Positions 21,474 through 60,898 of a stretch of 64,000 bases of DNA are shown piece by piece. The notes below the pieces were generated by a model. That model did not search any database. It was not told the origin of the DNA and saw nothing but the letters and a program-made list of their open reading frames with translations. Numbering within the stretch: position 1 is the first letter of the stretch; each line of letters starts with the position of its first letter. The position numbers and the translations under genes are program-made. The DNA is from Polyangia bacterium. Its GTDB lineage: Bacteria > Myxococcota_A > Polyangia > Fen-1088. The DNA is taken from positions 3,521 to 67,520 of the forward strand of contig DASXOE010000048.1 of NCBI GenBank assembly GCA_036494575.1. Reading direction: 5' to 3'.

Positions 21474-23318
21474 ATGACCATGAAGCTCACCAAGGCGTCC
21501 GTAGGGCTCGCGGGGATCCTCGCACTGTTCGCGTGCTCGCCGTCGGGGAGCGGGAACCCAGGCACTGGCGTGGGGACAGCTGGCGCTGGGACGGGCGCGG
21601 CTGGCGCCGCGGGCACGACGGCGGGCGGCGGCGGCGCGGGGACGATGGGCGAGGCCGGCGCGGGAACGGCGGGCGCCGCGGGGACCACGGGCGCGGCCGG
21701 TGCGGCTGGCGCGGCCGGGACCGGCGCCGCGGGGACCGGGGGAGCGGCCGGGACGGGCGTGGCGGGCACGGGGCCGGCCGACGAGTCGGTGCTCGAAAAG
21801 GGAAAGCGTCCGTCGCGAGACGGCAACTACGTTCAGCCCATGCTGACCACGGCAGCGGCGGCGAAGGTGATGCCGGACACGACGTTCAACGCGGCCGCGA
21901 CCTTCAACGGACAGATATACGCCTCGCCCCTTTATCTGGCGAAGGGCCCTGGGGGGATGGGGATCTTCATCGCCGCCACGACGAACAATGACGTGAAGGC
22001 ATTCGACGATACGGGCAAGCCGGTCTGGACGCGTAACTTCGGCACGTATTCGTCGAGCGGGGTCTTCATGCCCAAAGGCGTCATGGGCACGCCGGTCATC
22101 GACCCCGCGGCTGGCGCCGACGGATTCGCGACGATCTACGCCTGCGCCCCTGCCGCCGCGGCGCCCGGTGGCAAGATGGATCACTACGAGGTCCACGCGA
22201 TCTCCGCAAAAGACGGAACCGAGCGGACCGGTTGGCCGGCGAAGCTCGACGGCACGATCATGGCGAAGAACGACGGATTGAACCGTCCTTTCGTCCCAGG
22301 CAACCACGCGCAGCGTCCAGCGCTGTCACTGGTCAACGGCGTCGTGTACGTCGGATTCGGAGGCCCCTTCGGTGACATCGGGACCTACTACGGCTGGGTC
22401 ATCGCGGTCGACACGAAGAACCCGGCGACCGTCGCCGCGTGGTCTACGCGTCTCATGGGCGGCGCCATTTGGTCGCCGGGCGGCTTCGCTTCCGATGGCA
22501 ACGGCGTGCTCATCACGACGGGCAACTACTGGCCCGGCCGTTTCACGGCGCCCATGACTTACGGAGACACCGAATCGATCATTCGGATCACCGGAATGCC
22601 GAACGCGCCGGTTCGGAGCGGTGCGTACTACCCCGTGCGCTGGAAGCAGATAGACACCGACGACCAAGACTTCGGCGCGTCCAGCGTCATGCTCCTGAAC
22701 GTCCCTGGCTCGACCCATGGCAGCTATGCGGTGAGCGCGACGAAGGACGCGCACCTCTACATCGTCGGCAGCGCGATGCTCGGCATGGACGGCGGGGGCG
22801 GCGAAGACGTCGACCTGACGCTCTCGGCGAGCAACCACTCCGCGCGCGTCTCCCCCGTGGCCTACACGACCGCCACCGGAATCCACTTCGCCCTCACCGT
22901 CGACCGAGGCCCGTACATGGGATGCCCAGCCGGCTCGAACCCGGACCCCGCCATGGCCGTCCTCATGGGCTTCACGGTGACCCCGGGCAATCCCATCACC
23001 GTGACCCAGAACTGGTGCCTCACCATCGGGGGCCCGACGATGTTCGACGATGGCACGATCAGGAACCGGAGCGCCTCTCCCCTCGTCACGACCACGGACG
23101 GCATGAGCCAACCGATCGTGTGGGTCGCAGGGAGCTCGTCGCAAACCGCGGCCGGTACGACGGCGAATTTCCTCTACGGCGTCGACGGGGAGACCGGCAA
23201 GGTCCTCTACATGGGCGGCAATTGCCCGGGCATTCGCCAGTGGACGACTCCGATCGCGGTCAAGGGGCACATCGTCTTGGGCGGCGACGGCCGCCTTTGC
23301 TCGTGGTCTCCGCATTAA
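21474..23318 (+). CDS. Lipoprotein with a PQQ-like/BamB-like beta-propeller domain
   Basis: 'MTMKLTKASVGLAGILALFACS' has a lipobox, followed by a long Gly/Ala/Thr linker. Repeated 'G..VW' and 'A.D..TG' type propeller-blade motifs are present ('VKAFDDTGKPVWTRNFG', 'HAISAKDGTERTGW', 'LYGVDGETGKVLY'). Confidence 0.7.
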   Translation: MTMKLTKASVGLAGILALFACSPSGSGNPGTGVGTAGAGTGAAGAAGTTAGGGGAGTMGEAGAGTAGAAGTTGAAGAAGAAGTGAAGTGGAAGTGVAGTGPADESVLEKGKRPSRDGNYVQPMLTTAAAAKVMPDTTFNAAATFNGQIYASPLYLAKGPGGMGIFIAATTNNDVKAFDDTGKPVWTRNFGTYSSSGVFMPKGVMGTPVIDPAAGADGFATIYACAPAAAAPGGKMDHYEVHAISAKDGTERTGWPAKLDGTIMAKNDGLNRPFVPGNHAQRPALSLVNGVVYVGFGGPFGDIGTYYGWVIAVDTKNPATVAAWSTRLMGGAIWSPGGFASDGNGVLITTGNYWPGRFTAPMTYGDTESIIRITGMPNAPVRSGAYYPVRWKQIDTDDQDFGASSVMLLNVPGSTHGSYAVSATKDAHLYIVGSAMLGMDGGGGEDVDLTLSASNHSARVSPVAYTTATGIHFALTVDRGPYMGCPAGSNPDPAMAVLMGFTVTPGNPITVTQNWCLTIGGPTMFDDGTIRNRSASPLVTTTDGMSQPIVWVAGSSSQTAAGTTANFLYGVDGETGKVLYMGGNCPGIRQWTTPIAVKGHIVLGGDGRLCSWSPH

Positions 23319-25600: not shown

Positions 25601-28378
<2,778 letters not shown>

Positions 28379-28442: not shown

Positions 28443-30119
28443 ATGGCGAAGCACGGCCGCTACAAGATCGTCCGGAAGGTTGCGGACGGCGGCATGGCCG
28501 AGATCTTCCTCGCGATGCAGCTCGGCCGCGAGGGCTTCCAGAAGCCCGTGATCCTGAAGCGGATCCACAGCACGATCTACGCGGATCCGCAGTTCCGTAA
28601 CATGTTCATCGACGAGGCCCACATCTCGATGGGCCTGTCGCACAGCAACATCGTGCAGATCCTCGACCTCGGCGTCGGCAGCGGCCGCTATTTCCTCGTC
28701 ATGGAGGTCGTCGACGGCTGGGACCTCGGGAGGGTGCTCCAGCGCGCCGCGATGGCGGGGACGCCGTTGCCGCGCGAGCTCGGCCTGCACGTCACGGCCG
28801 AGGTCTGCCGCGCGCTCGCCTACGCGCACGGCAAGATGGACGCCGCGGGCGAGCGGCCGCTCGGCATCGTTCACCGCGACGTCAGCCCCCAGAACATTCT
28901 CCTCTCGGAGCAGGGCGAGGTGAAGCTCACGGACTTCGGCATCGCCAAGGCCATGGGCAAGCGCGAACAGACGGGGACGGGCGTCGTGAAAGGAAAGGTG
29001 GCGTTCATGGCGCCCGAGCAGGCGCTCGGAAAGACCATCGACGCGCGCTCTGATCTCTTCGCGCTCGGAACGGTGCTCTACCAGCTCATGGTTGGCGTGC
29101 GCCCGTTCGAGGCGCCCACGGATCTCGAGGTGCTGCTGCGCGTGCAGCGCGCCGACTTCCGTCCCGCCGAGGTCGCGGCGCCGGATCTGCCCACGCACGT
29201 GAGCGCGATCATCGGGCGCGCCATGCAGCTCGATCCCGACATGCGTTACCAGAGCGCCGAGGAGATGCTCAACGACATCGAGCAGGTCCTGCGCACGGTG
29301 TTCAATCCCGTGGGTCAGACCGAGCTCAAGCGCTGGCTCGCGGCGCTGGGCGCGCGTGACGGTCAATTGCCCATGGCCAAGGGCGCGCAGACGCCTCCGC
29401 CCGGGCGCCTCCCGGGCACGGGCGAGATGGAGGGCAAGGACGTCGTCCTGGAGGAGGTCGACGGCGAGGAGGCCACGTCGCTCGCGAGCATCGACGGGCC
29501 CGGCGGCGAGATGCGCCAGCGCATGACGCGCCCGCGCGCCGCCGAAGAGCTCGCGCTGCCGGTGCCGCACGACGACGAGTCGGCGCTGTCGGGCCGCATG
29601 AGCCCGCTCGAGTTTCCGCTGCCGCTGTCGGACACCGAGGAGCGCCCCGGCCGGCGGCGCGTGCGTAGCGGCGGCGGCTTCTCTACGATTCTCTTCGGGT
29701 TGTTGCTCATCGGCGGCGCGGCGTTCGCGGGCCGTTACTTCGGGCTGCTGCGAGAGAAGCAGGGCGCCGACGAGCCGCCGCCCGCGACCGTCAGCCCCGC
29801 CAAGACGGCTGAGGCCGAGGCGAGCAAGGCCGACAAGCCGCGGCCCGCTTCGGAGAAACACGCCGTCGCGGCGGCGGCGTCGTCGACCGGGACGGGGCAC
29901 GACGGCGGAGCGGCGGCCACGACCCACCTCGCGGCGCGCAAGGCCGAGGCGGCCGAGCCCGCGCGCGAGCCGCCGCGCCATCCGCGGGGTCCCTCCGAGA
30001 AGCCCGAGCACCTCCGGCGCATCGACGAGCTCAAGAGCATGATGGCCCCCGATCCGTCGCTCGACCCGATACCCACGCCGAGCGAGCCGCCGCCCGCGCC
30101 GGCTCCTGCGAATCCCTAG
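28443..30119 (+). CDS. Hanks-type Ser/Thr protein kinase with a C-terminal TM helix and a Pro-rich tail
   Basis: 'GGMAEIFLA', 'VILKRI', 'IVHRDVSPQNILL', 'LTDFGIAK' and 'APEQ'. The later hydrophobic segment is 'FSTILFGLLLIGGAAFAGRYF'. Confidence 0.9.
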   Translation: MAKHGRYKIVRKVADGGMAEIFLAMQLGREGFQKPVILKRIHSTIYADPQFRNMFIDEAHISMGLSHSNIVQILDLGVGSGRYFLVMEVVDGWDLGRVLQRAAMAGTPLPRELGLHVTAEVCRALAYAHGKMDAAGERPLGIVHRDVSPQNILLSEQGEVKLTDFGIAKAMGKREQTGTGVVKGKVAFMAPEQALGKTIDARSDLFALGTVLYQLMVGVRPFEAPTDLEVLLRVQRADFRPAEVAAPDLPTHVSAIIGRAMQLDPDMRYQSAEEMLNDIEQVLRTVFNPVGQTELKRWLAALGARDGQLPMAKGAQTPPPGRLPGTGEMEGKDVVLEEVDGEEATSLASIDGPGGEMRQRMTRPRAAEELALPVPHDDESALSGRMSPLEFPLPLSDTEERPGRRRVRSGGGFSTILFGLLLIGGAAFAGRYFGLLREKQGADEPPPATVSPAKTAEAEASKADKPRPASEKHAVAAAASSTGTGHDGGAAATTHLAARKAEAAEPAREPPRHPRGPSEKPEHLRRIDELKSMMAPDPSLDPIPTPSEPPPAPAPANP

Positions 30120-30126
30120 AGGCCTC

Positions 30127-30318
30127 TCAGCGCTTGTTGCTGAAAGGGCGGACGACGCCTGGTTTCCGCGGCCCGAGGCCGATCTCCGCCGCGATCTCGC
30201 GCAGCAGACGCGCGAGCTCACGCACCTCGGCCTCGGGCGCCGGTGTGCCGGTCGCGATGCGATCGGCGATGAAGTCCGCCTTCTCGCTCGCGACGGTCAC
30301 GCGATCCTTGGACGACAT
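30127..30318 (-). CDS. Small hypothetical protein (63 aa)
   Basis: ATG at 30318. Third positions are almost all G/C. The sequence is 'MSSKDRVTVASEKADFIADRIATGTPAPEAEVRELARLLREIAAEIGL...'. No homology recognised. Confidence 0.4.
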   Translation of the reverse strand: MSSKDRVTVASEKADFIADRIATGTPAPEAEVRELARLLREIAAEIGLGPRKPGVVRPFSNKR

Positions 30319-30348
30319 TCCGTACGTTCCCAATCGACGGGTAGCCGG

Positions 30349-30606
30349 CTACTGACGCGTCTCGTTCCGTGGACGGTCCAGGGCTCGCGCTGCGTCGAAG
30401 CCTTCGTCGAAGCCTTCGACGCCTCGGAGGTCGCGTCTCGCGCCGACGACGCGAAGCAAGAGCGCCACGAGGGCCGGGCTGGCCATGACGGCGTCGCCAT
30501 CGTCCGAGAGGCCTCCCACGGCCTCGTCCAGGTCGTCGCAGGCGGCCTCGAGGGAGGCGCGCGCGGTCGCGAGCGTGAGGGGCCCGGTCACGGAGGCGCT
30601 CTTCAA
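30349..30606 (-). CDS. Small acidic hypothetical protein (about 85 aa; start uncertain)
   Basis: The distal part of the 157-aa track ORF has coding-like third-position bias. The TTG at 30606 is the most upstream plausible start. The N-terminal Arg/Pro-rich part of the track ORF was discarded. Confidence 0.3.
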   Translation of the reverse strand: MKSASVTGPLTLATARASLEAACDDLDEAVGGLSDDGDAVMASPALVALLLRVVGARRDLRGVEGFDEGFDAARALDRPRNETRQ

Positions 30607-30842
30607 GAGCGGGCCCCGAGCGGCCGGGAGACGACTCGCCGGACGCTCCGACCCCGCTGGGACACGCAATACATCCTCTTTCTTGGGCCGAAACCGGAGA
30701 GATCGCAAGATTTCTTTCGGATGACGCGGTCGACCTCGCGGGTCGCAGGTCCGGCGAGACGGACGAACCGGCGCTGGGTTTTTCGTTCTGGGCCCGAGCC
30801 GTGTCTGTTTGTGCGCTCGCAAGAGCGACCAAAGGAGAGCGG

Positions 30843-31853
30843 ATGAAACGGCTGACTTCGATGTGCGCGCTGGTGGGATTGATGGCCGTCTTCGCGGGGA
30901 CGGGCTGCCGCAAGACGGACGACGAGGCCTTTCGCGCCGGCGTGCCGACGCGCGAGGCGGTGACGCTCCACGTGGCGGGCGTGCCCGACGACGGCGGCGG
31001 CGCGAGCGGCGCCGTGACGAGCGCTCTCGTTGGGCAGAAGGCCGATACGTACACGCTCACGCGCGTCGTGACGGCCGTCGTGAATGGGGGGACGTGGGCC
31101 GTGCTGACGCTCGTCAAGACTGTGGTGTCCTTCCCGGCGACCACCGCCTCTCACGACGTGGCGGTCTGGGGCCCGCACACCGACCCGCTCTCGCCCAACA
31201 CCTGGCGCCTCACGGTGACCCGCCTCGGGCCGCACGAGTTCCAGTGGCTCTTCGAGGGGCGCGACAAGACCAAAGGCGACGACGCGTTCCTCGCGATCAT
31301 CACGGGCACGCACACGGCGGCGGTCGACGCGCAGGACGATCCCATCGAGGGCTTCGGCAGTGGCAGCTTCACGATTGACTGGGACAAGGCGGCGATGCTG
31401 CCCGAGCACGACACGAACGTCGGCCGCGCGGCCTTCACCTACTCGCGCCTCACGACCGACGCCGTCGTGACGGTGGACGTCGACTTCACGGGCATCCGCG
31501 ACGACAAGACCTCGGAGATCTTCGACGCCAAGTACCGCTACACGTCGACGCCCGGGCAGGGCGGTAAGCTCCGCTACGCCGAGGACAAAGACAACGTGCC
31601 GGCGCCAGGCAATACGGGGACGGCTAAGGAGCACTTCACGATCGAGAGCCGCTGGACCGAGCAGGGCGTGGGCCGCTGCGACCTCCAGGACTCGGGCGGC
31701 GACCTCATGAGCACGATCGCGCACGCCTCCGAGTGCTGGGATTCCAATTTCGACAGCGTCTACCGAGATCTCGAGTACCCCGACCCCGCGGGCAACTGGG
31801 GCGCCGAGAGCGCTTGTACCGGCTTCCCAACGGCTGAATACCCAAACCTTTAA
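30843..31853 (+). CDS. Hypothetical lipoprotein (paralog of 35045-36013)
   Basis: RBS 'AAAGGAGAG' and the lipobox 'FAGTGC'. It shows collinear similarity to the lipoprotein at 35045-36013 (see findings). Confidence 0.75.
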   Translation: MKRLTSMCALVGLMAVFAGTGCRKTDDEAFRAGVPTREAVTLHVAGVPDDGGGASGAVTSALVGQKADTYTLTRVVTAVVNGGTWAVLTLVKTVVSFPATTASHDVAVWGPHTDPLSPNTWRLTVTRLGPHEFQWLFEGRDKTKGDDAFLAIITGTHTAAVDAQDDPIEGFGSGSFTIDWDKAAMLPEHDTNVGRAAFTYSRLTTDAVVTVDVDFTGIRDDKTSEIFDAKYRYTSTPGQGGKLRYAEDKDNVPAPGNTGTAKEHFTIESRWTEQGVGRCDLQDSGGDLMSTIAHASECWDSNFDSVYRDLEYPDPAGNWGAESACTGFPTAEYPNL

Positions 31854-31996
31854 AATGGGAACCCTGAGAGGGTTCCCATACCCTCCAAGTAACCGGCTCC
31901 GGCGGGCGAAGCCCGCCTGCGGCTCTAAAATGGGAACCCTGAGAGGGTTCCCATACCCTCCAAGTAACCGGCTCCGGCGGGCGAAGCCCGCCTGCG
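31851..31996. repeat. Two tandem copies of a 75-bp unit, each carrying two short GC-rich hairpins
   Basis: Copy 1 is 31851-31925. Copy 2 starts at 31926 and is identical for 71 bp. The copy 1 hairpins are GGGAACCCT-gag-AGGGTTCCC (31857-31877) and GGCGGGC-gaa-GCCCGCC (31901-31917). Confidence 0.9.
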
Positions 31997-32001
31997 CCTT
32001 C

Positions 32002-32039
32002 GTGTTGAGGTGCTCACGTTGTGTTGAGGCGCTCACGTT
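32002..32039. repeat. 2 x 19-bp direct repeat (GTGTTGAGG[T/C]GCTCACGTT) ending 6 nt before the ECF sigma start codon
   Basis: Read directly at 32002-32020 and 32021-32039, with the ATG at 32046. No Shine-Dalgarno sequence is visible between them. Confidence 0.85.
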
Positions 32040-32045
32040 GATCAT

Positions 32046-32597
32046 ATGAGCGAAACTGGTAGCCGACCCATTTTGAAGCTCGTCGCCGGCGGGAAGGCCG
32101 ACGACACGCGGGCGGCGCTGCGCGAGCTTTACGCGGCGTATGGCGGCAGCGTCTACGGGCGCTGCCAGTATCTGTTACGCGACCGGGTCAAGGCCGAGGA
32201 CGCCATGCAGGACGTGTTCGCGAAGGCTCTCTCGCACTGGGGCGAGTTCCGGAGCGAGTCGTCGCCGCTGACGTGGCTCATCAGAATCGCGACGCATCAC
32301 TGCCTCAACGTGCAGCGCGCCGAGCGCGCGCCCTGGCACAAGCTCTTCGCGCGGCAGGAGCGCGCCCGCGCCGAGGGTCACGGCGGCCCCCAGCTGCTCG
32401 AGGATCGCGACACCGTGCGCAACCTGCTCGCGGGGCTCGACCTCGAGACACAGCAGGCGGCCATTCACTACTTCGTCGACGAGATGACGCTCGAAGAGGT
32501 CGCGAAGGCGCTGGGTCGGTCGGTGCCGACGGTTCGCAAACGACTGGAGAGCGTGTCGGCCCTGGCCGGACGGAGCATGAAGGAGATCGAGCCATGA
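32046..32597 (+). CDS. ECF-type RNA polymerase sigma-70 family factor
   Basis: 183 aa. Region 2 is 'LYAAYGGSVYGRCQYLLRDRVKAEDAMQDVFAKAL...WLIRIATHHCLN'. Region 4 is 'AIHYFVDEMTLEEVAKALGRSVPTVRKRL'. Confidence 0.9.
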   Translation: MSETGSRPILKLVAGGKADDTRAALRELYAAYGGSVYGRCQYLLRDRVKAEDAMQDVFAKALSHWGEFRSESSPLTWLIRIATHHCLNVQRAERAPWHKLFARQERARAEGHGGPQLLEDRDTVRNLLAGLDLETQQAAIHYFVDEMTLEEVAKALGRSVPTVRKRLESVSALAGRSMKEIEP

Positions 32598-33421
32598 GCG
32601 CGCAGATGCAAGACAGGCACGTGGGAGAGCTCGCGCTGCGCCGGCTTCGCGCCGGCGAAGCGGTTCGAAACGAAGCGGTTCGAAACGAAGCGGTTCGAGA
32701 CGGGGCGTCGCCGGAGAGCGCCGCGCACGCCGAGACGTGCGCGGATTGCCGCGCGCGACTCAAGTCGTTCGACGACGAGCAACGCCGGTTCGAGCAAGAG
32801 ATCTCGTTCGACCGGTTCGCGGCGGGCGTGACGCGCGCGGCGCGCACGGCGGCGCCCCGCCGCGGCGCGCCGCTTCGCACCGTGCGCTTCATGCTCCCCA
32901 CCTTGAGCCTGGCCGCGGGCATCGCGCTGTTCGTCGGCGTCACCGCGAGGCGCGAGCATCTTCCGAGCTCGCACAACTCCGTCAAGGGCGGCGCCGCGAT
33001 CACTGTGCGCGTCTCGGCGGGCGACACCGGACCCCAGCGCTTCGCCGCCGAGAGCGCGCCCGAGGCCCTCGCGCCCGGTGAGCGCGTGCGCATCGGCTAC
33101 CAGCCGGGGGCGCGCCGCTATCTGCTCTCGCTCTCGATCGACGAGGCGGGTGAGGTGACGCCGCTCTACCCCGAGGTGGGCCGGAGCGTGCCGGTGGGCA
33201 AGGCCGTGGGCGCGGGTCTGCGCTACCTGCCCGACAGCATCGAGTTCACCGACGCGGGCGCGGAACGGCTGTTCGTGATCCTGAGCGATCAGCCCATCGA
33301 CGTCGACGCGGCCCGCCGCGCCGCGCGCACCTCGTTCGCGCGCGCCAAGGGCGATATCCTGCACATGCCGGCGCTCGAGCTGCCCGGAGAGCAGTTCCAG
33401 CGGACCTTCATCAAACCCTGA
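32594..33421 (+). CDS. Anti-sigma factor (zf-HC2-like N-terminus, one TM helix, DUF4384-like extracytoplasmic domain)
   Basis: The ATG overlaps the sigma stop (ATGA at 32594-32597). 'HVGELALRRL...HAETCADCRARL' is H-x-C-x2-C-like. The TM helix is 'FMLPTLSLAAGIALFVGV'. The C-terminal 'ERVRIGYQPGARRYLLSLSIDEAGEVTPLYPE...ERLFVILSDQP' resembles DUF4384 (from memory). Confidence 0.8.
   Translation: MSAQMQDRHVGELALRRLRAGEAVRNEAVRNEAVRDGASPESAAHAETCADCRARLKSFDDEQRRFEQEISFDRFAAGVTRAARTAAPRRGAPLRTVRFMLPTLSLAAGIALFVGVTARREHLPSSHNSVKGGAAITVRVSAGDTGPQRFAAESAPEALAPGERVRIGYQPGARRYLLSLSIDEAGEVTPLYPEVGRSVPVGKAVGAGLRYLPDSIEFTDAGAERLFVILSDQPIDVDAARRAARTSFARAKGDILHMPALELPGEQFQRTFIKP
32657..32701. repeat. 3 x 15-bp in-frame tandem repeat (gaagcggttcgaaac) encoding EAVRN-EAVRN-EAVRD in the anti-sigma N-terminal domain
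   Basis: Read directly. The third copy has one mismatch. Confidence 0.9.
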
Positions 33422-33456
33422 CTTTCGATGATGAACGGAAGCTCGGCCGGCGTCGC

Positions 33457-35055
33457 ATGAACATGAAGCGGACAAGCCTCGCCGTCGCCGTCGCCGTCGC
33501 CGTGGGGCTGACGGCCTCCGCGGCGCGCGCCGATGGCCTGCACCGGTTCGCCGTGATCGTGGGCAACGACACGGGTGGGAGCGACACGCGGCCGCTCGTG
33601 TATGCGCGCGCCGACGCGCGCAAGGTCTACGACATCCTCACGCGCCTCGGCGGCGTGCGCGTCGACGACGCGCAGCTCGTCCTCGACGGCAGCGCGCAGG
33701 ATCTACTGGCGGCGCTGGCCGGAACCGAGCGCCGGGCCGCCGACGCGCACGCGCGCGGCGAGCGCACTGCGCTCATCCTCTACTACTCGGGCCACGCCAA
33801 GGACGGCGCGCTTCGGCTCGGCGACACGCGGCTGCCGCTCGACTCGCTCAAGGCGCGCGTCTCCGCCTCGCCCGTCGACGTGCGCATCGCCATCCTCGAC
33901 TCGTGCCGTTCGGGCGAGCTCACGCGCACGAAGGGAGCGCGGCGCGCGCCCGCGTTTCAAATCCAGGCCGAAGGCCCGCGCGACGCCAAGGGCCTCGTCA
34001 TCCTCACGTCGAGCTCGTCCGACGAGGACTCGCAGGAGTCGGACCTCGTGGGCGGCAGCTACTTCTCGCACCACCTCGCGAGCGGGCTGCTCGGCGGCGC
34101 CGACAAGTCTGGCGACGGCCGCGTCACGCTCTTCGAGGCTTACGCCTATGCCTACGATCGCACGGTGGCGGACACGGCCGAGACGGCCGCGGGCCCGCAG
34201 CACCCGACGTTCAGCTACGACCTCGCGGGCAACGGCGATCTCGTCCTCACCGACGTCGCCGCGCGGCGCGAGGGCATCTACCTTCCCCGCGAGGCGCCCG
34301 GCGGGGTCTATTACCTCGTGGACCGACAGGGCTTCGTCGCCGCCGAGATCGTCAAGGAGGCGAGCGACCGGCGCATCGCGCTGCCGCCCGGCCGCTATCG
34401 CGTCAAGCGCCGCCTCGCCGATCGACTGCGCGTGGGCGAGCTCGAGGTGGCCGCGGGCCAGATGAGCACTCTCGACGAGAGCCGTCTGCGCGACGCGCCG
34501 TTCACCGACGATCCGGTCAAGGGCGCGATGCGCGTCGACGTCTCGCGCTGGTCCGTGGGCGTCGGCGGTGGGTTCCAGGCGGTCTTCGACGCGCCCACGC
34601 GGCAGAGCCTTTTTCCCGCCACGGGGCTCGTGGGCGTCGACCTGCAGCTCCGGAGCTTCTTCCGGCGCGACTGGGTCTGGGGCCTCGACGCCGCGGGCGG
34701 GGGTGCCAACGGCGTCGTGACCCTTCCACCGTCAGGGACGGCGGCACCCTTCCGGTTCAGCGAGCTGTCGTTCGCGTCCTCGCTCGTCGTCGAGTGGCCA
34801 CACCGTCTGCTGACGCCGTTCGTGGGCGGCCGCCTGGCGCTCCTGCTCATGACACGCCGGTTCGACGCGGACGCGTTTCCCGCGCAGTACTTCTCGACGC
34901 TGTCGCCCGGGCTCGTGGGCGGCACCACCTGGCGCGTCGCGCGCAGCTGGGGCGTCGTGCTGCGCGCGCGCGTGCACTACCTCCTCTACAACGTAGATGA
35001 AAACCGCTCCCTGGGATTCTGGGAGCTCGCCACGGCGGTGTCATATGATCTCTGA
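33457..35055 (+). CDS. Secreted caspase-family (peptidase C14) protein with a C-terminal putative beta-barrel domain
   Basis: The signal peptide is 'MNMKRTSLAVAVAVAVGLTASAARA'. 'FAVIVGND', the catalytic His context 'LILYYSGHAKDG' and the catalytic Cys context 'IAILDSCRSGE' are present. The C-terminal ~190 aa has alternating amphipathic strands. Confidence 0.85.
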   Translation: MNMKRTSLAVAVAVAVGLTASAARADGLHRFAVIVGNDTGGSDTRPLVYARADARKVYDILTRLGGVRVDDAQLVLDGSAQDLLAALAGTERRAADAHARGERTALILYYSGHAKDGALRLGDTRLPLDSLKARVSASPVDVRIAILDSCRSGELTRTKGARRAPAFQIQAEGPRDAKGLVILTSSSSDEDSQESDLVGGSYFSHHLASGLLGGADKSGDGRVTLFEAYAYAYDRTVADTAETAAGPQHPTFSYDLAGNGDLVLTDVAARREGIYLPREAPGGVYYLVDRQGFVAAEIVKEASDRRIALPPGRYRVKRRLADRLRVGELEVAAGQMSTLDESRLRDAPFTDDPVKGAMRVDVSRWSVGVGGGFQAVFDAPTRQSLFPATGLVGVDLQLRSFFRRDWVWGLDAAGGGANGVVTLPPSGTAAPFRFSELSFASSLVVEWPHRLLTPFVGGRLALLLMTRRFDADAFPAQYFSTLSPGLVGGTTWRVARSWGVVLRARVHYLLYNVDENRSLGFWELATAVSYDL

Positions 35056-36013
35056 ACGGCGGCTGCTCTCGCTCTCGGTGGCGTTGGCTTGCGCGGCGCT
35101 CGTCGCCGCCGGGTGCGGCAATTACTCGAACGAGGATCTCGAGTTCATGAACGCGCTGCCGGAGAGCAGCGACCTGCGCGCCAACATCCCGCCGCGCTCG
35201 AGCGCCCTCGAGCCGGCCGACGAGGCGGAGCTCGCGCGCGAGACCCACACGGTGACGACGGGGTTCAACGGCCTGCTCATGGCGCTCGTCGGGATCGTCG
35301 ACACGGTTCGCAGCTATCCGCCCACGACGCGAACGCCCGACGGGCGCATCTGGGGGCCGTTCCCCGCCGATCGCGCGAAGATGAAGAACCTCGACTGGCA
35401 AACGCGCATGATCGTGAGCCGTCACCCAGGAGCGGCCGATCAATTCGACTATGAGATCTCCGTGCACCACGCCCCAGGCGCGGACACGGATTGGCCTCTC
35501 TTCGTGAGCGGTTGGTTCCAGGCCGGGCACACGGCGCGCCGGGGCGTGGGCCACGTCGAGCTCGTCACGGCCGCCGTGCGGGCCGAGGGCCTGGACGTCT
35601 CGGATCTGGGAATGCTCGACCACCTCGAGATCGACTACGACACGCTGGACGATCCGATCACAATCACCATGAACGTCGCCAATTTGCCTGACCCGAGCAC
35701 CCCCGATCCGGCCGGCAAGGTGATTTACACGTATCGCGCCAACGCGGAGGGCCAGGGTGAGATGACCTTCGACCTCTTCGGGCAGATCGTGCCGGGTCCG
35801 GCCAGCGAAGACGTGAGAGTCGTGAGCCAGTGGCTGAGCACGGGCGCCGGTCGGGCCACGCTCACGGTCGTAGCGGGGGATGGCATGGGCTCGCAGCAGA
35901 TGGAGTGCTGGGACAGGTCATTTCGGGCGACATTCAACGCCAAGCCATGGTCGACCGGAGAGGACGTGCCGGGCGACCCGACGGTGGCATGCCCCGTGAT
36001 TCCCACCCTTTAG
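35045..36013 (+). CDS. Hypothetical lipoprotein (paralog of 30843-31853)
   Basis: The start was trimmed to 'MISERRLLSLSVALACAALVAAGC' (lipobox). It overlaps the caspase gene stop by 11 nt. Confidence 0.75.
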   Translation: MISERRLLSLSVALACAALVAAGCGNYSNEDLEFMNALPESSDLRANIPPRSSALEPADEAELARETHTVTTGFNGLLMALVGIVDTVRSYPPTTRTPDGRIWGPFPADRAKMKNLDWQTRMIVSRHPGAADQFDYEISVHHAPGADTDWPLFVSGWFQAGHTARRGVGHVELVTAAVRAEGLDVSDLGMLDHLEIDYDTLDDPITITMNVANLPDPSTPDPAGKVIYTYRANAEGQGEMTFDLFGQIVPGPASEDVRVVSQWLSTGAGRATLTVVAGDGMGSQQMECWDRSFRATFNAKPWSTGEDVPGDPTVACPVIPTL

Positions 36014-36183
36014 GTGACCGACGCGCCGCTTGGGCCATTCTGCTCGGGCGGCGTCGGCGGTGCGTCGTTAGGGCAAGCGTCGGCAGGAACGATGGAATCC
36101 CAGGATGGATTCGGGGGCTGGTTCCAGGGTATGATGTTGTCTCACCACCCGATAGCCGCCCCCGCGGAGAAGGACCCCACCCT

Positions 36184-36516
36184 TTGGCCGAGCACTTTCG
36201 ACGAATCGACCCTCGATATGAGCGCCAGCTCGATGTCGAGGTCGTGGCGGATGGGAAGAAACACACCTCCCGCACCGTGAACATCTCGCTCGGCGGGCTC
36301 TTTTTGGACTCGTCGACGCCGCTCGAGCTCGGCGTGACGGTCCAGCTCCGATTTCAGCTTCCCACGCAGCCGGAGCCCGTCGAGGTGGCCGGCGACGTCC
36401 GTTGGGTCGTCAAGAAGGACGGCAACCACTCGGGCATCGGCATCCGCTTCCAGGGCCTGCGCGCGCGCGACGTCTGGGCCCTGAACCAGTTCTTTCAGTC
36501 TAGTTCGGGCCCCTGA
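36184..36516 (+). CDS. PilZ-domain (c-di-GMP-binding) protein
   Basis: 'RRIDPRYER' (RxxxR) and 'NISLGGLFL' (D/NxSxxG) are separated by the usual spacing. The start is tentative: TTG at 36184, 9 nt after 'GGAGAAGGA'. There is no in-frame ATG closer to the domain. Confidence 0.65.
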   Translation: MAEHFRRIDPRYERQLDVEVVADGKKHTSRTVNISLGGLFLDSSTPLELGVTVQLRFQLPTQPEPVEVAGDVRWVVKKDGNHSGIGIRFQGLRARDVWALNQFFQSSSGP

Positions 36517-36646
36517 GAGGGTCCCGCGCCCCCTGCTCCTGCCCACCCTCCATCCCACCACTCGCCACGCTCGGCCTCGCCGCGCCCCCGGCGGCGGCTC
36601 GAACGAGCGAAGCTCGTCCTCGCCGCGGCTGCGGTGTTCGCCGCGG

Positions 36647-39034
36647 TTAGCGAAGGCTGTCCGGGAGAAGCGGGGAGGGCGCGCTCGTGTACGTGACCCA
36701 GAGCTGGTGGGCGGCGCGCGTCATCGCGACGTGCAAGAGGCGGCGCGCGTCGTCGCCCGTGCCGTAAGACGACGCGTTGACGTCGAGCAGGATGACGATG
36801 TCGAACTCGAGCCCCTTCGTCTGACGCACGTCGGTGACGTCGATGCCGGGCGTGAAGGAGAAGTCCTGGTCGGCGACGAGCCTCAGGGCCGGGACCTCGG
36901 CGCGCGCAAGGGCGTCGTAATACAGCAGGGCCTGCTCCGGGTGGCGCGCGAGCAGGGCCACCGACGCCTCGGGCTCGGCGCGCACGAGCTCCTTGAGCGC
37001 GTGCGAGAGGAACTCCGTGCATTCACCGGCCGAGCCGAAACCAAAGGCTTCGACGGGCGCGCCGGCGCGCGGCGCGACCGGGCGCACGTCGCCCTGGAGC
37101 GGGCCGAGGACGTGCTCGGCCAGCTCGACGATCTCGCGCGTCGAGCGGTAGCTCACGCGCAGCGGCTCGATGCGCTCGTGCGCGATGCCGAGATCGTCGA
37201 GGAGCGCGGCCCAGTTCGAGAAGCCGTGCTCGGGCGCGATGGCCTGCGCCGTGTCGCCCGCGAGGGTCACCGAGCGTTGCCTGCTCGTCGTGTCGAGGAG
37301 CACGGCGAGCTCGAGCGGTGAGAAGTCCTGCACCTCGTCGACCATGAGGTGCTCGTAGGCGAGCGGCGCCATCCCTTTGGGGCCCGGGAGCGGCCCGCGC
37401 TGGAGCTGGTAGATCCTCAAGAGCAGGGCGTCGTCCTCGGCGTCGAAGGCGAAGCCCTCACCGTCGTCCTCGAGCTTGCCGCCCGTGCGCAGGCGCTCGC
37501 GCGCGACGCACCAACGGTGCAGGTCGTCGAGCTGGCCGTCGGAGAAGACGCCCGACGCGTGCGTCGCGAAGCCGGCGCGCAGGGCCTCGCGATCGGTGAG
37601 GAGCGCGGCCCACTCGCCCGTGACGTCGCGCGTGCGGGAGCGCAGCGCGCGCCCGACGTGCTCGAGCGCCGTCCTGACCGGAGGATCGAGCGCTGCGTCG
37701 CGCACCCACGTCGCGAAGGCCGTGACGCGCGCGTCGACGGGGCCGCCCGCCGCGGCCGCGTCCCAGGCCGCGAGCGCGTCGGTGACGGCCACGCGCGCCG
37801 CGGGCTCGGCGGCGAGACGCGCGAGCTCGGCGCGACACCACGCCGTGAGGGCTGTCTGGCGGTCGACGAGGATGCGCAGCATTGCCCCGTGCGACTTGGC
37901 GCGCATGACGACGGACGGCGTCTCGTCGGTGACGGGCACGTCGAGCAGCGGAAGCGCCAGCTTGCGCTTCTCGTGGGCCCAGGCGGAGAAGGTCAGGACC
38001 GGGACGCCCTCGACGTCGAGCGCCGGCAGCACGCGCGACACGTACGCGGCGAGCGCGCGCTGGTACACGATGATGAGCATCTTGTCGGCGCGGAAGCGGC
38101 GCGGCTCGGCGAAGGCCAGGTAGGCGATCCGGTGCAGGCCGATCGTCGTCTTGCCGCTCCCCGCGGAGCCCTGCACGGCGATGAGGCCCGACGCCGGCTG
38201 CGTGATGAGCTCGAACTGGCGCGGGTCGATGAGCGCCGCGATGGCGGGCAGGTGGCGGTCGGGGCGGCGCTGACCTTCGTCGTCGAGCCCCAAGCGGCCG
38301 CGCACGGCGGGCGCCGCGGGCTTGGGCGGCAGCGGCCGCGTCGGCAACATCGTCGCCGTGCTGCCGTCGCGCGCGATCTGGAGCTTGGCCTGCTGGGCGG
38401 CGACCTGCCGCCACGCGCCCGTCTTGAAGTCGCGGCTGAACGTGCCCTGAGGCGAGGCCACGCGCCGCAGCTCCGAATCGACGATCGCCACCGTGCGGCG
38501 CGCGAGGACCTCGCCCTCGACGAGCCGATCGCCGAGGCGCTCCTCGTAAAGGTCGCCCTCCTCGTAGCGATAGAACAGGCGCGAGACGGGCGCGTTGCGC
38601 CAGTCGACGATCTGGACGCCGCCGCCCGGCTCGACGTAGCTGCGCGCGCCGATGAGCACGTCCCGCCGCTTGCCCGATTCCTCGAGGCGCAGGTGGCCGA
38701 AGTAGGGCGATTTGCGATCGACGGGGGGGCTGTCGCCCTTGCCGCGCTGACGGGAGAGCGCTTCGATGCGGTGCATCTGCTCGAGGATCGAGCCCTGGTC
38801 CTCGGGCTTGGCCTCGGCGAGCGCGTCGCGCAGCTCGATGAGCGAGCCCGCGTCGTCGACGGGCGCGCGGCTCTTGCGCGGCGCCGCCCCGTCGAGCTTA
38901 CGCAGGACGACCGACAGGAGCTGCTGCTCCTCGACCACGATGGGCGCCGCCTCCTCCGCCTCGGGCGGGATCGCAGCGTCTCCTCCCGCCGCCGGGGACG
39001 TTTCGTTCTGCGGATCCAAGAGATCGGCCAGCAT
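36647..39034 (-). CDS. UvrD/Rep-superfamily helicase of the HelD/helicase IV type (RNA-polymerase-associated ATPase-like)
   Basis: The start was trimmed to 'MLADLLDPQ'. The N-terminal region 'SPYFGHLRLEE...VQIVDWRNAPVSRLFY' is HelD-like. Walker A is 'GSAGSGKTTIGLHR', with 'LMVDEVQDFSPLELAVL' and 'HVAMTRAAHQLWV'. Confidence 0.85.
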   Translation of the reverse strand: MLADLLDPQNETSPAAGGDAAIPPEAEEAAPIVVEEQQLLSVVLRKLDGAAPRKSRAPVDDAGSLIELRDALAEAKPEDQGSILEQMHRIEALSRQRGKGDSPPVDRKSPYFGHLRLEESGKRRDVLIGARSYVEPGGGVQIVDWRNAPVSRLFYRYEEGDLYEERLGDRLVEGEVLARRTVAIVDSELRRVASPQGTFSRDFKTGAWRQVAAQQAKLQIARDGSTATMLPTRPLPPKPAAPAVRGRLGLDDEGQRRPDRHLPAIAALIDPRQFELITQPASGLIAVQGSAGSGKTTIGLHRIAYLAFAEPRRFRADKMLIIVYQRALAAYVSRVLPALDVEGVPVLTFSAWAHEKRKLALPLLDVPVTDETPSVVMRAKSHGAMLRILVDRQTALTAWCRAELARLAAEPAARVAVTDALAAWDAAAAGGPVDARVTAFATWVRDAALDPPVRTALEHVGRALRSRTRDVTGEWAALLTDREALRAGFATHASGVFSDGQLDDLHRWCVARERLRTGGKLEDDGEGFAFDAEDDALLLRIYQLQRGPLPGPKGMAPLAYEHLMVDEVQDFSPLELAVLLDTTSRQRSVTLAGDTAQAIAPEHGFSNWAALLDDLGIAHERIEPLRVSYRSTREIVELAEHVLGPLQGDVRPVAPRAGAPVEAFGFGSAGECTEFLSHALKELVRAEPEASVALLARHPEQALLYYDALARAEVPALRLVADQDFSFTPGIDVTDVRQTKGLEFDIVILLDVNASSYGTGDDARRLLHVAMTRAAHQLWVTYTSAPSPLLPDSLR

Positions 39035-40580: not shown

Positions 40581-44306
<3,726 letters not shown>

Positions 44307-47631: not shown

Positions 47632-49569
47632 ATGGTGGACGAGTCAGAGGGGGCCAAGGGGGGGCCGGCGGTCGGGGGCGTCGCCAATCGACTCGAGCTG
47701 TTCTTCGATTTGTCGCCCGACCTGCTCTGCATCGCCGCGCTGGACGGATATTTCCGGCGCCTGAATCCGGCGTGGGAGCGCGTGCTCGGCTACCCGCTGG
47801 CCGAGATCTACGCCATGAGCTGGCTGGAGCTCGTTCACCCCGACGATCGGGCCCGTACGTTGTCGGACTTCGGGCGCGCCGACAAGTCGGGCACGATGTT
47901 CTTCGAGAACCGCTATCGCCACCGCGACGGCTCTTATCGTTGGCTCGAGTGGAGCGCCATCCAGGTCCCCGACGATCGCGGGTACTACGCGGTCGCGCGC
48001 GACGTCACCGAGCGGCGCGCCGAGCAGGAGCGCCTGCGCGCGAGCGAGGCGTACAAGATGGCCGTACACGAGGCTTCGACGGATCCGATCGTGGCGCTCG
48101 ACGGCCAGGGGCGCGTGCTGGACTTCAACGCGGCGGCCGAGCGCGCGTACGGCTACAGCGCTGGGCAGGTCGTGGGGACCTCCTTCGCCGAGTTCGCCGT
48201 CCCGCCCGACCGGCGCGCGGCCTTCGGGGCGGACCTCGTCCGCTTCGGCAAGGCCGAGGGGCGCATCGTCGAGTTCCGCGTCGAGCAGGTCGGCTTGCGC
48301 GCGGACGGTTCGCGCTTCCCCTTCGAGCTGACCGTGACGCGGCTCGAGGGCGGCCCGTCGGTCTACATGGCGTTCATCCGCGATGTCACCGACGCCAAGC
48401 GCGGCGAGGAAGAACGGCGCAGCCTCGAGGATCAAGTCCGCCAGGCGCAGAAGATGGAGGCCGTCGGGCGTCTCGCGGGCGGCGTCGCGCGGGACATCAA
48501 TGAGCTCCTGGGAGCGATTGCCGGCTTCGCGGACGTCGCCGGCTCCGCCGCGCCCGCGGGCGGGCTCGCGCGGGAGCGGCTCGAGAAGATGAAGAGGGCC
48601 TCGGAGCGCGCCGTTAGCCTCGTCGATCGGCTGCTCGCCTTCGGCCGCCGCCAGTCGCTCGCGCCACGGGTCACCGACGTCAACGCCCTCATCCGCGAGC
48701 TCGAGCTCGTCGTGCGTGGCCTCATGCGCGACGACGTTTCGCTCCAGCTCGCGCTCGACGACCGCGTCGCGCGCGTCAAGGCCGATCCGACGCAGCTACA
48801 GCAAGCCCTCGTCAACCTCGTCGTCAACGCGCGGGAAGCCATGCCGGCGAAGGGCAGGCTGCGCCTCACGACGAGCAACGTCGACCTCGAGGCGGCAAAT
48901 CTGCCTTCGGGCGTGGAGGCCAACGCCGGTCCGTACGTCCGCATCACCGTGGAGGACAATGGCCTGGGCATGAGCCGTGACGTCGCGTCTCGGGCCTTCG
49001 AGCCCTTCTTCACGACCAAGGAGTCGACCGGGGCGTCGGGGCTCGGCCTGTCGACGGTGTACGGGATCATCGCTCAGAGCGGCGGCTTCGTCCGCGTCCA
49101 GTCGGCGCCCGGGCGGGGCACGATCGTGCAGGTGTTGCTGCCCGCCGTCGAAGAGCCGCGTGAGCGCGTGGCCGCGGCGGCCTCGGCATCATCGACCACG
49201 ATCTTGCTCGTCGAGGACGAGGAGGCGGTGCGGCAGCTCGTGCGCCGTATCCTCGAGAGCCACGGCTACAAGGTGCTGCTCGCGCGCCACGGCGGCGAGG
49301 CCCTCGAGCTCATCCACCAGGTCGACCTGCCGATCCAGCTCCTCCTCACCGACGCGGTCATGCCCGTGTTGAGCGGACCCGAGCTGCTCCGGCGCGCCAT
49401 CGCGCTGCGCCCCCAGATGAAGCTCGCCATCATGTCGGGCTACACGGATCGTCCGGCCGTCACGGGCGTGCCGTTCATCGGCAAGCCGTTCACGCCCGCC
49501 GAGCTCGAGCGGCGCGTGCGCGAAATCCTCGACGCGCCGCCGCTGGCGGCGCATCCATCGGCGAAATGA
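47632..49569 (+). CDS. PAS-PAS hybrid sensor histidine kinase-like protein with a C-terminal receiver domain; the H-box phospho-acceptor His is replaced by Arg
   Basis: There are two PAS-like blocks ('NPAWERVLGY', 'RYRHRDGSYRWLEW', 'FIRDVTD'). The HATPase N/G boxes are 'NLVVNAREAM', 'DNGLGM' and 'GASGLGLS'. The REC domain has 'ILLVEDEE...LLLTDAVMP...GKPF'. The H-box reads 'LAGGVARDINELL' instead of the usual '...AHDFNNLL'. Confidence 0.88.
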   Translation: MVDESEGAKGGPAVGGVANRLELFFDLSPDLLCIAALDGYFRRLNPAWERVLGYPLAEIYAMSWLELVHPDDRARTLSDFGRADKSGTMFFENRYRHRDGSYRWLEWSAIQVPDDRGYYAVARDVTERRAEQERLRASEAYKMAVHEASTDPIVALDGQGRVLDFNAAAERAYGYSAGQVVGTSFAEFAVPPDRRAAFGADLVRFGKAEGRIVEFRVEQVGLRADGSRFPFELTVTRLEGGPSVYMAFIRDVTDAKRGEEERRSLEDQVRQAQKMEAVGRLAGGVARDINELLGAIAGFADVAGSAAPAGGLARERLEKMKRASERAVSLVDRLLAFGRRQSLAPRVTDVNALIRELELVVRGLMRDDVSLQLALDDRVARVKADPTQLQQALVNLVVNAREAMPAKGRLRLTTSNVDLEAANLPSGVEANAGPYVRITVEDNGLGMSRDVASRAFEPFFTTKESTGASGLGLSTVYGIIAQSGGFVRVQSAPGRGTIVQVLLPAVEEPRERVAAAASASSTTILLVEDEEAVRQLVRRILESHGYKVLLARHGGEALELIHQVDLPIQLLLTDAVMPVLSGPELLRRAIALRPQMKLAIMSGYTDRPAVTGVPFIGKPFTPAELERRVREILDAPPLAAHPSAK

Positions 49570-53816: not shown

Positions 53817-56057
<2,241 letters not shown>

Positions 56058-60830: not shown

Positions 60831-60898
60831 TTAGGTCGAAAACAGTAAGGCCTGGGTGGGGGGCGAGTCAAAGTCCGCCGTTGTACACTGCGGCGCCC

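Follow-up and report, generated by a model that had tools for sequence, protein, structure and literature searches.

A conserved operon of Myxococcota encodes an extracytoplasmic function sigma factor, a single-pass anti-sigma factor, a secreted metacaspase-like protease and two paralogous lipoproteins

Bacterial metacaspases (orthocaspases) are proteases whose function the literature still calls cryptic, and the roles suggested for them are mostly in cell death. A survey by Asplund-Samuelsson et al. (2012, PMC3501461) found that four of the five metacaspases of Myxococcus xanthus are encoded in operons with sigma factors (MXAN_4949-4953, 6681-6684, 7214-7216 and 7454-7456 in its Table S2), each comprising a sigma factor, an intervening gene and a metacaspase, with a lipoprotein in two of them; for at least two of the four, the product of the intervening gene is predicted to be a membrane protein. 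Sigma-metacaspase operons were also listed for Anaeromyxobacter, Haliangium, Sorangium, Ralstonia and Fibrobacter, and a role of metacaspases in developmental cell death was speculated upon (PMC3501461). Here, we describe a cassette of a sigma factor of the extracytoplasmic function (ECF) type, an anti-sigma factor, a secreted caspase and two lipoproteins in a 64-kb stretch of DNA, hereafter the window, from a Polyangia bacterium (positions 3,521 to 67,520 of contig DASXOE010000048.1, assembly GCA_036494575.1), the G+C content of which is about 70%.

Two characterized systems also join caspase-family proteases to ECF anti-sigma factors. In the DdvA-DdvS system of M. xanthus, the ECF sigma factor is held by a single-pass zinc-type anti-sigma factor, DdvA, whose periplasmic TPR-CHAT domain has been proposed to make the site-1 cut in DdvA itself before RseP acts (PMC11506125). 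In type III-E CRISPR systems, Craspase (Cas7-11/Csx29) cleaves Csx30, the N-terminal domain of which binds RpoE in an anti-sigma-like manner, and one group of Csx30 C-terminal domains is DUF4384 (10.1101/2022.08.17.504292; PMC10028731). DUF4384 is also documented as fused to orthocaspases and other proteases; the first-pass annotation of the window, which was made from its sequence alone, had described the domain as frequently fused or adjacent to bacterial caspases.

That annotation had named six consecutive genes as one functional unit: a lipoprotein (LipoA, 336 amino acids (aa), 30843-31853), the ECF sigma factor (183 aa, 32046-32597), the anti-sigma factor (275 aa, 32594-33421), the caspase (532 aa, 33457-35055), a second lipoprotein that it called Lipoprotein A' and that is here named LipoB (322 aa, 35045-36013), and a PilZ-domain protein (110 aa, 36184-36516). 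All six open reading frames were recovered on the plus strand with the boundaries it had drawn, and reading of the sequence also bore out the junctions, namely an ATGA overlap of 4 nucleotides (nt) between sigma and anti-sigma genes (32594-32597), a 35-nt gap from the anti-sigma stop at 33421 to the caspase ATG at 33457, and an 11-nt overlap of the caspase stop codon (35053-35055) with the start of LipoB at 35045. The cassette as an observation is therefore confirmed, and Pfam searches agreed with its sigma factor, peptidase C14 and PilZ assignments.

The conservation of this arrangement was examined from the caspase outwards. More than 1,300 homologues of the caspase are present in the database, of which the best 120 share its length, and the organism-named entries among these 120 all belong to Polyangia. 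By scanning one genome per species with the caspase alignment, 80 loci were collected, comprising Polyangia metagenome-assembled genomes at 64-89% identity and loci at 56-62% identity from cultured Myxococcia (Corallococcus, Myxococcus, Archangium, Vitiosangium, Citreicoccus and Hyalangium). In every locus of the 80 that reaches far enough, tblastn placed LipoA, sigma factor, anti-sigma factor, caspase and LipoB in this order on one strand; because of this identical five-gene order, the arrangement is far beyond chance. The spacing is equally tight, with a median of 28 nt between LipoA and sigma, -4 nt between sigma and anti-sigma in most of 71 loci, a median of 2.5 nt between anti-sigma and caspase, and -11 or -4 nt between caspase and LipoB in most loci. 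These five genes are thus one operon and functional unit, held together in two classes of Myxococcota by conserved synteny, overlapping codons and an operon-specific promoter-like motif.

The sixth gene did not stand as part of the unit. The PilZ gene, separated from LipoB by a gap of 170 nt, encodes a valid member of its family (Pfam PilZ, 8.9e-18, 65 bits against a cut-off of 22.5) with the RxxxR (RIDPR) and NxSxxG (NISLGG) motifs, but it is absent from all Myxococcia loci and its place inside the conserved unit was ruled out. Similar to a UvrD-like helicase, a Ser/Thr kinase and a MopE-like protein, PilZ is conserved at Polyangia-clade loci only, and these neighbors represent ordinary local synteny.

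A conserved bipartite promoter-like motif precedes the operon. Dyad counting detected the form CTTTC(T/C)GTTT, about 11 nt, then GC(C/T)GTGTC(C/G)AT, which nearly all loci carry at a distance of some 30-160 nt upstream of LipoA; in the window, it is located at 30777-30809 on the plus strand, 34 nt upstream of the LipoA ATG. Its upstream element is T-rich, unlike the common GGAAC, and the canonical ECF pattern (GAAC, 14-19 nt, then CGT or GTC) is missing upstream of LipoA in nearly all loci. When a weight matrix built without the window sequence was used, the whole 64 kb gave a single match (score 28.9, compared with a maximum of 13.1 in 20 shuffles), and about 1 Mb of related loci gave 65 sites upstream of LipoA and 2 elsewhere. 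An exact-pattern scan of a metagenome collection returned 23 matches, 13 of them in contigs of at least 67% G+C and the rest in low-GC DNA; 12 of these 13 lie directly upstream of LipoA-sigma-anti-sigma(-caspase) sets, and the thirteenth was not evaluable. Because a T-rich motif has been kept in 70% G+C DNA across two classes, it appears to mark the operon promoter, with LipoA as the first gene, the ATG of which follows an AAGGAG ribosome-binding site. Since ECF sigma factors are usually autoregulated, we infer that the motif is recognized by the operon's own sigma factor, and the operon is probably autoregulated. In one Myxococcales genome, a second strong copy of the motif (locus L037, 8460-8492, score 33.9) was observed in the 3'-terminal part of the caspase gene, shortly before LipoB, for which it may be an internal promoter.

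In the spacer between LipoA and sigma, the 75-bp hairpin repeat that the first-pass annotation had pointed out was found by both tandem repeat scan and RNA folding. It is a perfect tandem repeat of 1.9 copies (31851-31996, plus strand), each unit of which can form two strong hairpins, and it scores highest among the tandem repeats of the whole window; its insert has an RNA fold z-score of -4.4. Downstream of it lies a direct repeat with a 19-bp unit in 2.1 copies (32002-32040), which ends 5 nt before the sigma ATG. Because of the repeat insert, the spacer is 192 nt long, an outlier against the median of 28 nt; none of the 80 related loci contains the hairpin core, and an Rfam scan of 30500-36800 gave no family match. 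The repeat-bearing spacer is thus specific to the lineage of the window, and the insert may stem from a small element, mobile or REP-like, that arrived recently and could separate the expression of LipoA from that of the genes after it. Two other Polyangia loci (L003 and L005) contain their own GC-rich hairpin, GGGCCCGGGG...CCCCGGGC, in the same spacer, which is unrelated in sequence to the repeat of the window. A structured element at this junction may therefore be recurrent, for example in setting the expression ratio of LipoA to sigma.

The identity of the sigma factor as an ECF (group 4) member of the sigma-70 family is well established by Sigma70_r2 (9.4e-14) and Sigma70_r4_2 (1.2e-6) in Pfam and by TIGR02937 in NCBIfam (79 bits against a cut-off of 42.9), and its closest solved relatives are SigH, SigE, SigK and SigW. 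Caspases and DUF4384 are both absent from the main text of the paper that reclassified ECF sigma factors.

The anti-sigma factor was characterized by an alignment of 31 orthologues. It has only one hydrophobic membrane helix (aa ~105-125, 32906-32968), which separates a cytoplasmic domain with a zinc-type motif, H45-x3-C49-x2-C52 (32726-32749), from a beta-rich periplasmic domain (aa 159-234, 33068-33295) resembling DUF4384. Both cysteines of the motif, C49 and C52, are invariant, and conservation of H45 is at least 90%, so that, by sequence, the N-terminal cytoplasmic domain carries the H-x3-C-x2-C pattern of the ZAS motif. The zf-HC2 family was matched by 17 of the 31 orthologues (best 1.2e-5) and not by the window protein searched alone against Pfam, probably due to an insertion of 17 aa that is unique to the latter and contains an in-frame 15-bp tandem repeat of 3.1 copies (32656-32702) encoding NEAVR three times within the cytoplasmic sigma-binding domain. 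Outside the membrane, a linker of variable length precedes an N-R-x-K-G motif with the invariant juxtamembrane pair K131-G132 (32984-32989), and the protein terminates in a conserved F-L-K-P (K274-P275) in which K274 is invariant. The resemblance to DUF4384 proposed by the first-pass annotation stands at the level of the family, 23 of the 31 orthologues matching the domain (best 1.3e-5), and falls below threshold for the window protein, which covers model positions 2-81 of 81 of PF14326 at 16.9 bits against a cut-off of 27 (E 0.007). On this evidence, the periplasmic domain would be a divergent relative of DUF4384 rather than a clean member. In NCBI, many orthologues bear the name 'DUF4384 domain-containing protein', and others are called 'zf-HC2 domain-containing' or 'ACP synthase'; 'ACP synthase' looks like a misannotation because the domain content offers no support for it. 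In PDB, the best matches of the anti-sigma factor were the DdvA and ChrR anti-sigmas, which were not significant.

The caspase is predicted to be an extracytoplasmic protease with an intact catalytic dyad, as had been read from its sequence. It has a Sec signal peptide (aa 1-25) without a lipobox, followed by a C14 domain (aa 30-216, 33544-34104; Peptidase_C14, 38.8 bits against a cut-off of 21.4), a conserved middle domain (aa ~255-357) and a C-terminal region of predicted beta structure. The YYSGHA and LDSCRSG motifs are present and line up with HYSGHG and FDSCHSG of metacaspase-1 (7qp0) in a profile alignment, and the dyad residues His113 (33793-33795) and Cys150 (33904-33906) are invariant together with Asp148 of the Asp148-Ser-Cys150 sequence. 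An Asp two residues before the catalytic Cys is the S1-pocket residue of metacaspases and paracaspases (MALT1). Because Asp148 occupies this position ahead of Cys150, the caspase is predicted to cleave after Arg or Lys. Eight-stranded outer-membrane barrels are expected to end in a hydrophobic or aromatic residue; of 79 caspase orthologues, 49 end in L or F and 18 in P.

The AlphaFold2 model of the caspase, built on a shallow alignment of 12 similar sequences, has an overall predicted local distance difference test score (pLDDT) of 57, and its usable regions are the caspase core and aa 365-531. Foldseek matched the N-terminus with MALT1, metacaspase-9 and procaspase-6. Residues 365-531 (34549-35049) were modelled as eight strands of 10-19 residues with pLDDT of about 70-85, for which Foldseek returned NspA, the OmpA transmembrane domain, Ail, OmpX and OprF (E 3e-6 to 4e-4; target-normalized TM-scores of about 0.5-0.6), suggesting an eight-stranded outer-membrane beta-barrel. 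Neither the middle domain nor the barrel alone gave any Pfam match at E up to 10. In OmpA-type barrels, both termini face the periplasm, and for this reason the protease domain of the modelled caspase is most likely periplasmic and tethered to the outer membrane.

LipoA and LipoB are paralogous, as had been suspected from the sequence (24% identity, E 1e-11), and LipoB is translationally coupled to the caspase. Their lipoboxes end in GTGC and AAGC, respectively, with the lipobox Cys present in 68 of 75 LipoA and 69 of 75 LipoB orthologues and mostly Gly at the +2 position of both; an ECWD motif and two conserved C-terminal Cys are common to the two proteins. The family has approximately 400 database matches, and among the best 120 of them the named entries are from Myxococcota, are called 'hypothetical protein' or lipoprotein, and have no Pfam domain. 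Sequence searches of Pfam and NCBIfam gave no match for LipoA or LipoB, and a PDB sequence search with the LipoA profile gave none for LipoA. The AlphaFold2 model of LipoA (112-sequence alignment; pLDDT 88, predicted template modelling score 0.84) shows a long helix and then 13 strands, and Foldseek found nothing significant for it in PDB (best E 0.1, porins with TM-scores below 0.25). Judged from sequence and model, LipoA appears to have no detectable relatives outside its own family, and with a confident model and no solved relative it is a target for structure determination, as is LipoB.

The core of the operon recurs well beyond the orthologues of the window. Run against 1.84 billion cluster representatives, the profile of the caspase yielded 2,553 clusters (50% identity) at E <=1e-30, many of which contain proteins of 510-814 aa that match residues ~6-360 only; the four sampled clusters with an organism name were from Myxococcota or Deltaproteobacteria. 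The genomic context was inspected for seven paralogous caspases, comprising six looked-up paralogues and locus L071 (23-4620, minus strand), and all seven adjoin an ECF sigma factor and a protein of 248-276 aa. Two of the paralogous caspases that were compared show 42-43% identity over aa 28-357. In five of the six looked-up paralogues, sigma factor, 248-276-aa protein and caspase follow each other on one strand, tightly spaced or overlapping, and in the sixth the caspase and the sigma pair are divergently transcribed. The intervening protein was readable in six of the seven modules, and each of the six aligns over its full length with the anti-sigma factor of the window at 22-30% identity. 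Only seven columns of this alignment are invariant, including K131-G132 and K274, so that two of the seven are lysines flanking the periplasmic domain. DUF4384 was detected in five of the eight sequences of the alignment including the paralogues (E<0.05), and some paralogous anti-sigmas lack the motif cysteines. Because the sigma pair is kept alongside in all seven cases, the link between caspase and sigma/anti-sigma extends beyond inherited synteny.

The paralogous modules do not contain LipoA or LipoB, and the C-termini of their caspases are unrelated to the barrel of the window protein. Compared in this way, sigma factor, anti-sigma factor with a DUF4384-like domain and caspase appear to form the core, to which the lipoprotein pair and the barrel would be additions in the orthologue group of the window. 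Other accessory genes are found in the paralogous modules, such as a 407-410-aa protein with GxQ-type repeats (35% identity between loci L108 and L110), a patatin-like lipase in L112 and a giant RHS/teneurin-like protein in L107; L111 contains a further module. A relationship of LipoA to the 407-aa accessory protein was ruled out by profile comparison, and the small genes that diverge from sigma in two paralogous loci are not homologous to each other. In L071, the caspase has an extra helical insert, and a plus-strand unit, apparently with an NlpC/P60-like peptidase, lies between the caspase and the sigma pair.

Based on these observations, we tentatively propose, at somewhat less than an even chance, that the five genes constitute an autoregulated ECF module spanning the envelope, in which an outer-membrane metacaspase would be the site-1 protease of the anti-sigma factor. 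The conserved promoter upstream of LipoA would drive LipoA, sigma, anti-sigma, caspase and LipoB. The anti-sigma factor would reside in the inner membrane, hold the sigma factor by its cytoplasmic HxxxCxxC domain and expose its DUF4384-like domain to the periplasm, while the exported caspase would be anchored in the outer membrane by its C-terminal barrel with the protease domain towards the periplasm. Upon an envelope signal, the caspase would cut the periplasmic part of the anti-sigma factor, candidate sites being the invariant juxtamembrane K131-G132 and the C-terminal K274. Such a cut would be the site-1 step that exposes the anti-sigma factor to the intramembrane protease RseP and thereby frees sigma, and LipoA and LipoB would most likely be sensors, or adaptors or gatekeepers for the protease. 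Cleavage of the anti-sigma factor by the caspase is offered as a hypothesis because of the recurrent co-occurrence of the two proteins, the conserved lysines and the precedent of related systems. The first-pass annotation had already suggested that the caspase may cleave the anti-sigma factor; the idea is reasonable, and its interpretation of the cassette as a whole is partly supported.

Several points weigh against this proposal. The cleavage step itself is a hypothesis argued from co-occurrence and precedent, the Arg/Lys specificity is argued from general knowledge of metacaspases and paracaspases, and the conserved lysines could be structural. On DUF4384, the window protein does not reach the Pfam cut-off, the model of the caspase is poor as a whole (pLDDT 57), and the barrel has no sequence-family match in Pfam at E up to 10. 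In addition, the caspase and the anti-sigma factor would be short-tethered to opposite membranes, which leaves their meeting in the periplasm unexplained. Since the paralogous modules have neither the lipoproteins nor the barrel, no core mechanism common to all modules can depend on them. Finally, ECF operons often carry their own targets, and adjacency fits an effector role of the caspase equally well.

Such an effector role is the main rival explanation, possible though rather unlikely in our estimate. It holds that the sigma pair senses another signal from the envelope through the DUF4384-like domain, and that the regulon has caspase and lipoproteins as its output; these would form a proteolytic system of the envelope that serves in remodelling, quality control, predation or development and does not cleave the anti-sigma factor. 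ECF operons commonly include their target genes; moreover, the motif occurs essentially only before the operon, so its own products may be the main output, and accessory genes vary among the paralogous modules in the manner of variable effectors. Yet it is the caspase that remains the constant partner of the sigma pair in all seven paralogues while other genes vary, and DUF4384 recurs with caspase domains in unrelated settings (orthocaspase fusions and Csx30), which argues for a direct relationship between domain and protease.

The relationship might also run in the opposite direction, the DUF4384-like domain tethering the caspase or inhibiting it as a pseudo-substrate, so that the main output would be proteolysis of other envelope substrates, possibly LipoA and LipoB, and sigma release would merely replenish the components. 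This draws on the same co-occurrence (five-gene synteny and paralogous trios), on the apparent self-containment of the operon in the motif scans, and on LipoA and LipoB as conserved, specific partners in the orthologue group of the window. It is nevertheless improbable, given that no inhibitor-like feature was identified, that paralogues exist without the lipoproteins, and that contact across opposite membranes is needed here just as it is for the proposed site-1 cleavage.

An anti-phage defense or programmed cell death module is brought to mind by the analogous sets of caspase-family protease, anti-sigma factor and ECF sigma factor that act in defense (DdvA-DdvS and Craspase-Csx30-RpoE), by a sub-threshold NCBIfam match to caspase_w_EACC1 (57 bits against a cut-off of 140), and by the developmental cell-death role speculated upon in the 2012 survey (PMC3501461). 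However, PADLOC detected no defense family in the window except for a marginal 17-bit match on the helix-turn-helix of sigma, and no CRISPR-like array is present in the 64 kb, in which Cas genes, including Cas7-11, were not looked for. The neighbors are housekeeping genes (MetH, malic enzyme and GlgB), and the cassette behaves as a core locus with stable synteny in two classes, whereas defense islands usually vary; this explanation is therefore considered improbable. That the genes are adjacent through inherited gene order alone, with no joint function, can hardly be credited: close relatives do share unrelated flanks as well (Ser/Thr kinase, PilZ and UvrD), but the five genes stay together in Myxococcia after these flanks have been lost, their start/stop codon overlaps are conserved, and the sigma/anti-sigma/caspase trio is repeated in independent paralogous copies elsewhere.

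The genomic surroundings of the cassette are core chromosomal and of housekeeping character. Other large genes of the window encode an FG-GAP repeat protein (17860-19692), the B12-dependent methionine synthase MetH (40581-44306, minus strand), a PAS-PAS hybrid histidine kinase with a receiver domain (47632-49569), a malic enzyme/PTA fusion (53817-56057, minus strand) and a GlgB-like branching enzyme (60746-62869). Upstream of the cassette, a gene at 25601-28378 encodes a secreted Cys-rich protein of 925 aa that has six repeats of the MopE type, an N-terminus weakly resembling VWA and a C-terminal tail rich in Arg. The product of the next gene (28443-30119) is a Ser/Thr protein kinase whose C-terminal part contains a membrane segment. 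The two genes are conserved beside the cassette only in some Polyangia-clade loci. The stretch between the kinase and LipoA (30120-30842) is unusually long for non-coding DNA, ~720 nt, of which the last 70 nt alone are accounted for, by the promoter-like motif; it also contains a 12-bp repeat of 2.2 copies at 30393-30418. GC-rich tandem repeats with periods of 18-57 bp lie under long open reading frames at 18019-18189, 21582-21773, 57093-57344 and 59521-59695 and, if coding, would give low-complexity segments rich in Gly, Ala and Pro. The G+C content falls to 62% in the final 2 kb of the window.

If cleavage of the anti-sigma factor by the caspase holds, the operon offers a concrete candidate role for bacterial metacaspases, namely regulated proteolysis of an ECF anti-sigma factor. 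The caspase family is large, with more than 2,500 clusters at E <=1e-30 and four such operons in M. xanthus alone. A wider reading, which is rather unlikely, is that the trio forms a phylum-wide, multi-copy class of trans-envelope signalling systems in which a metacaspase would be the dedicated site-1 protease of an ECF anti-sigma factor and DUF4384 the domain that caspase-family proteases recognize and cut, in a version whose protease is tethered to the outer membrane here and gated by two lipoproteins of a fold not seen before; the orthologue group of the window would then report outer-membrane state or envelope geometry. If this were true, bacterial metacaspases would have their first defined physiological role, and the presence of DUF4384 both on Csx30 and on orthocaspases would be explained. 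Orthologues of the operon are present in Myxococcus and Corallococcus, which are cultured genera, and M. xanthus is an established genetic model.

The layout proposed here recalls two envelope stress systems. In the SigmaE-RseA-RseB-DegS-RseP system of Escherichia coli, an inner-membrane anti-sigma factor receives a periplasmic site-1 cut and is then processed by RseP, and accessory periplasmic proteins gate the cut by outer-membrane state. The site-1 protease DegS is an inner-membrane serine protease, whereas that of the cassette would be a cysteine protease predicted to reside in the outer membrane, and no relationship of RseA or RseB to the DUF4384-like domain or to LipoA/LipoB was detected. 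In the Rcs system, the outer-membrane lipoprotein RcsF signals with OmpA-type barrels to IgaA. Lipoproteins and barrels of the outer membrane that relay to an inner-membrane regulator are thus found in Rcs and expected for the cassette, but the likeness is an analogy of layout only, as Rcs has no homology to the cassette and contains neither protease nor sigma factor.

Closer relatives exist within Myxococcota. The first-pass annotation knew of no characterized system with this composition, which holds insofar as no experiment on this operon was found, and does not hold for the gene association, since sigma-metacaspase operons had been listed (PMC3501461) and both DdvA-DdvS and Craspase-Csx30-RpoE are characterized. 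A literature search with six M. xanthus locus tags (four sigma factors and two caspases) found incidental mentions only and no functional study. The operons of the 2012 survey are of the same kind as the cassette (ECF sigma factor, intervening gene, metacaspase and often a lipoprotein), and the cassette is very probably an orthologue of one of the operons in M. xanthus or elsewhere in that survey. The association itself was therefore already published in 2012, and the cassette is a variant on a known theme; the survey listed gene neighbors only and gave no DUF4384 anti-sigma factor, barrel, lipoprotein pair, promoter motif or mechanism (PMC3501461).

With DdvA-DdvS, the cassette shares an ECF sigma factor, a zinc-type single-pass anti-sigma factor, a caspase-family His-Cys protease and the phylum. 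The protease of DdvA is a TPR-CHAT domain fused to the anti-sigma factor, which acts in trans within a dimer (PMC11506125), whereas in the cassette it is a separate C14 metacaspase-like protein with a predicted outer-membrane anchor, and a small DUF4384-like domain takes the place of TPR-CHAT in the anti-sigma factor. Membership in the DdvA family was ruled out, as the 275-aa anti-sigma factor has no TPR-CHAT domain and the C14 protease is separate. DdvS controls a CBASS/CRISPR defense island (PMC11506125), while no defense genes are among the neighbors of the cassette. Similarly, a caspase-family protease, an anti-sigma or anti-sigma-like partner, an ECF sigma factor and a DUF4384 or DUF4384-like domain are common to Craspase and the cassette, but type III-E systems are cytoplasmic, RNA-guided and CRISPR-linked and use a TPR-CHAT protease (10.1101/2022.08.17.504292; PMC10028731), whereas both the protease and the DUF4384-like domain of the cassette are predicted to be extracytoplasmic; membership in type III-E was ruled out by a C14 protease without TPR, the lack of a CRISPR-like array in the 64 kb (in which Cas7-11 was not looked for), the lack of PADLOC matches other than the marginal one on sigma, and the housekeeping context. 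The cleavage proposed for the cassette would nevertheless tie together DdvA, Craspase-Csx30 and the DUF4384-protease fusions, and an outer-membrane-anchored cysteine protease acting on an inner-membrane anti-sigma factor may represent a new signalling layout beside them.

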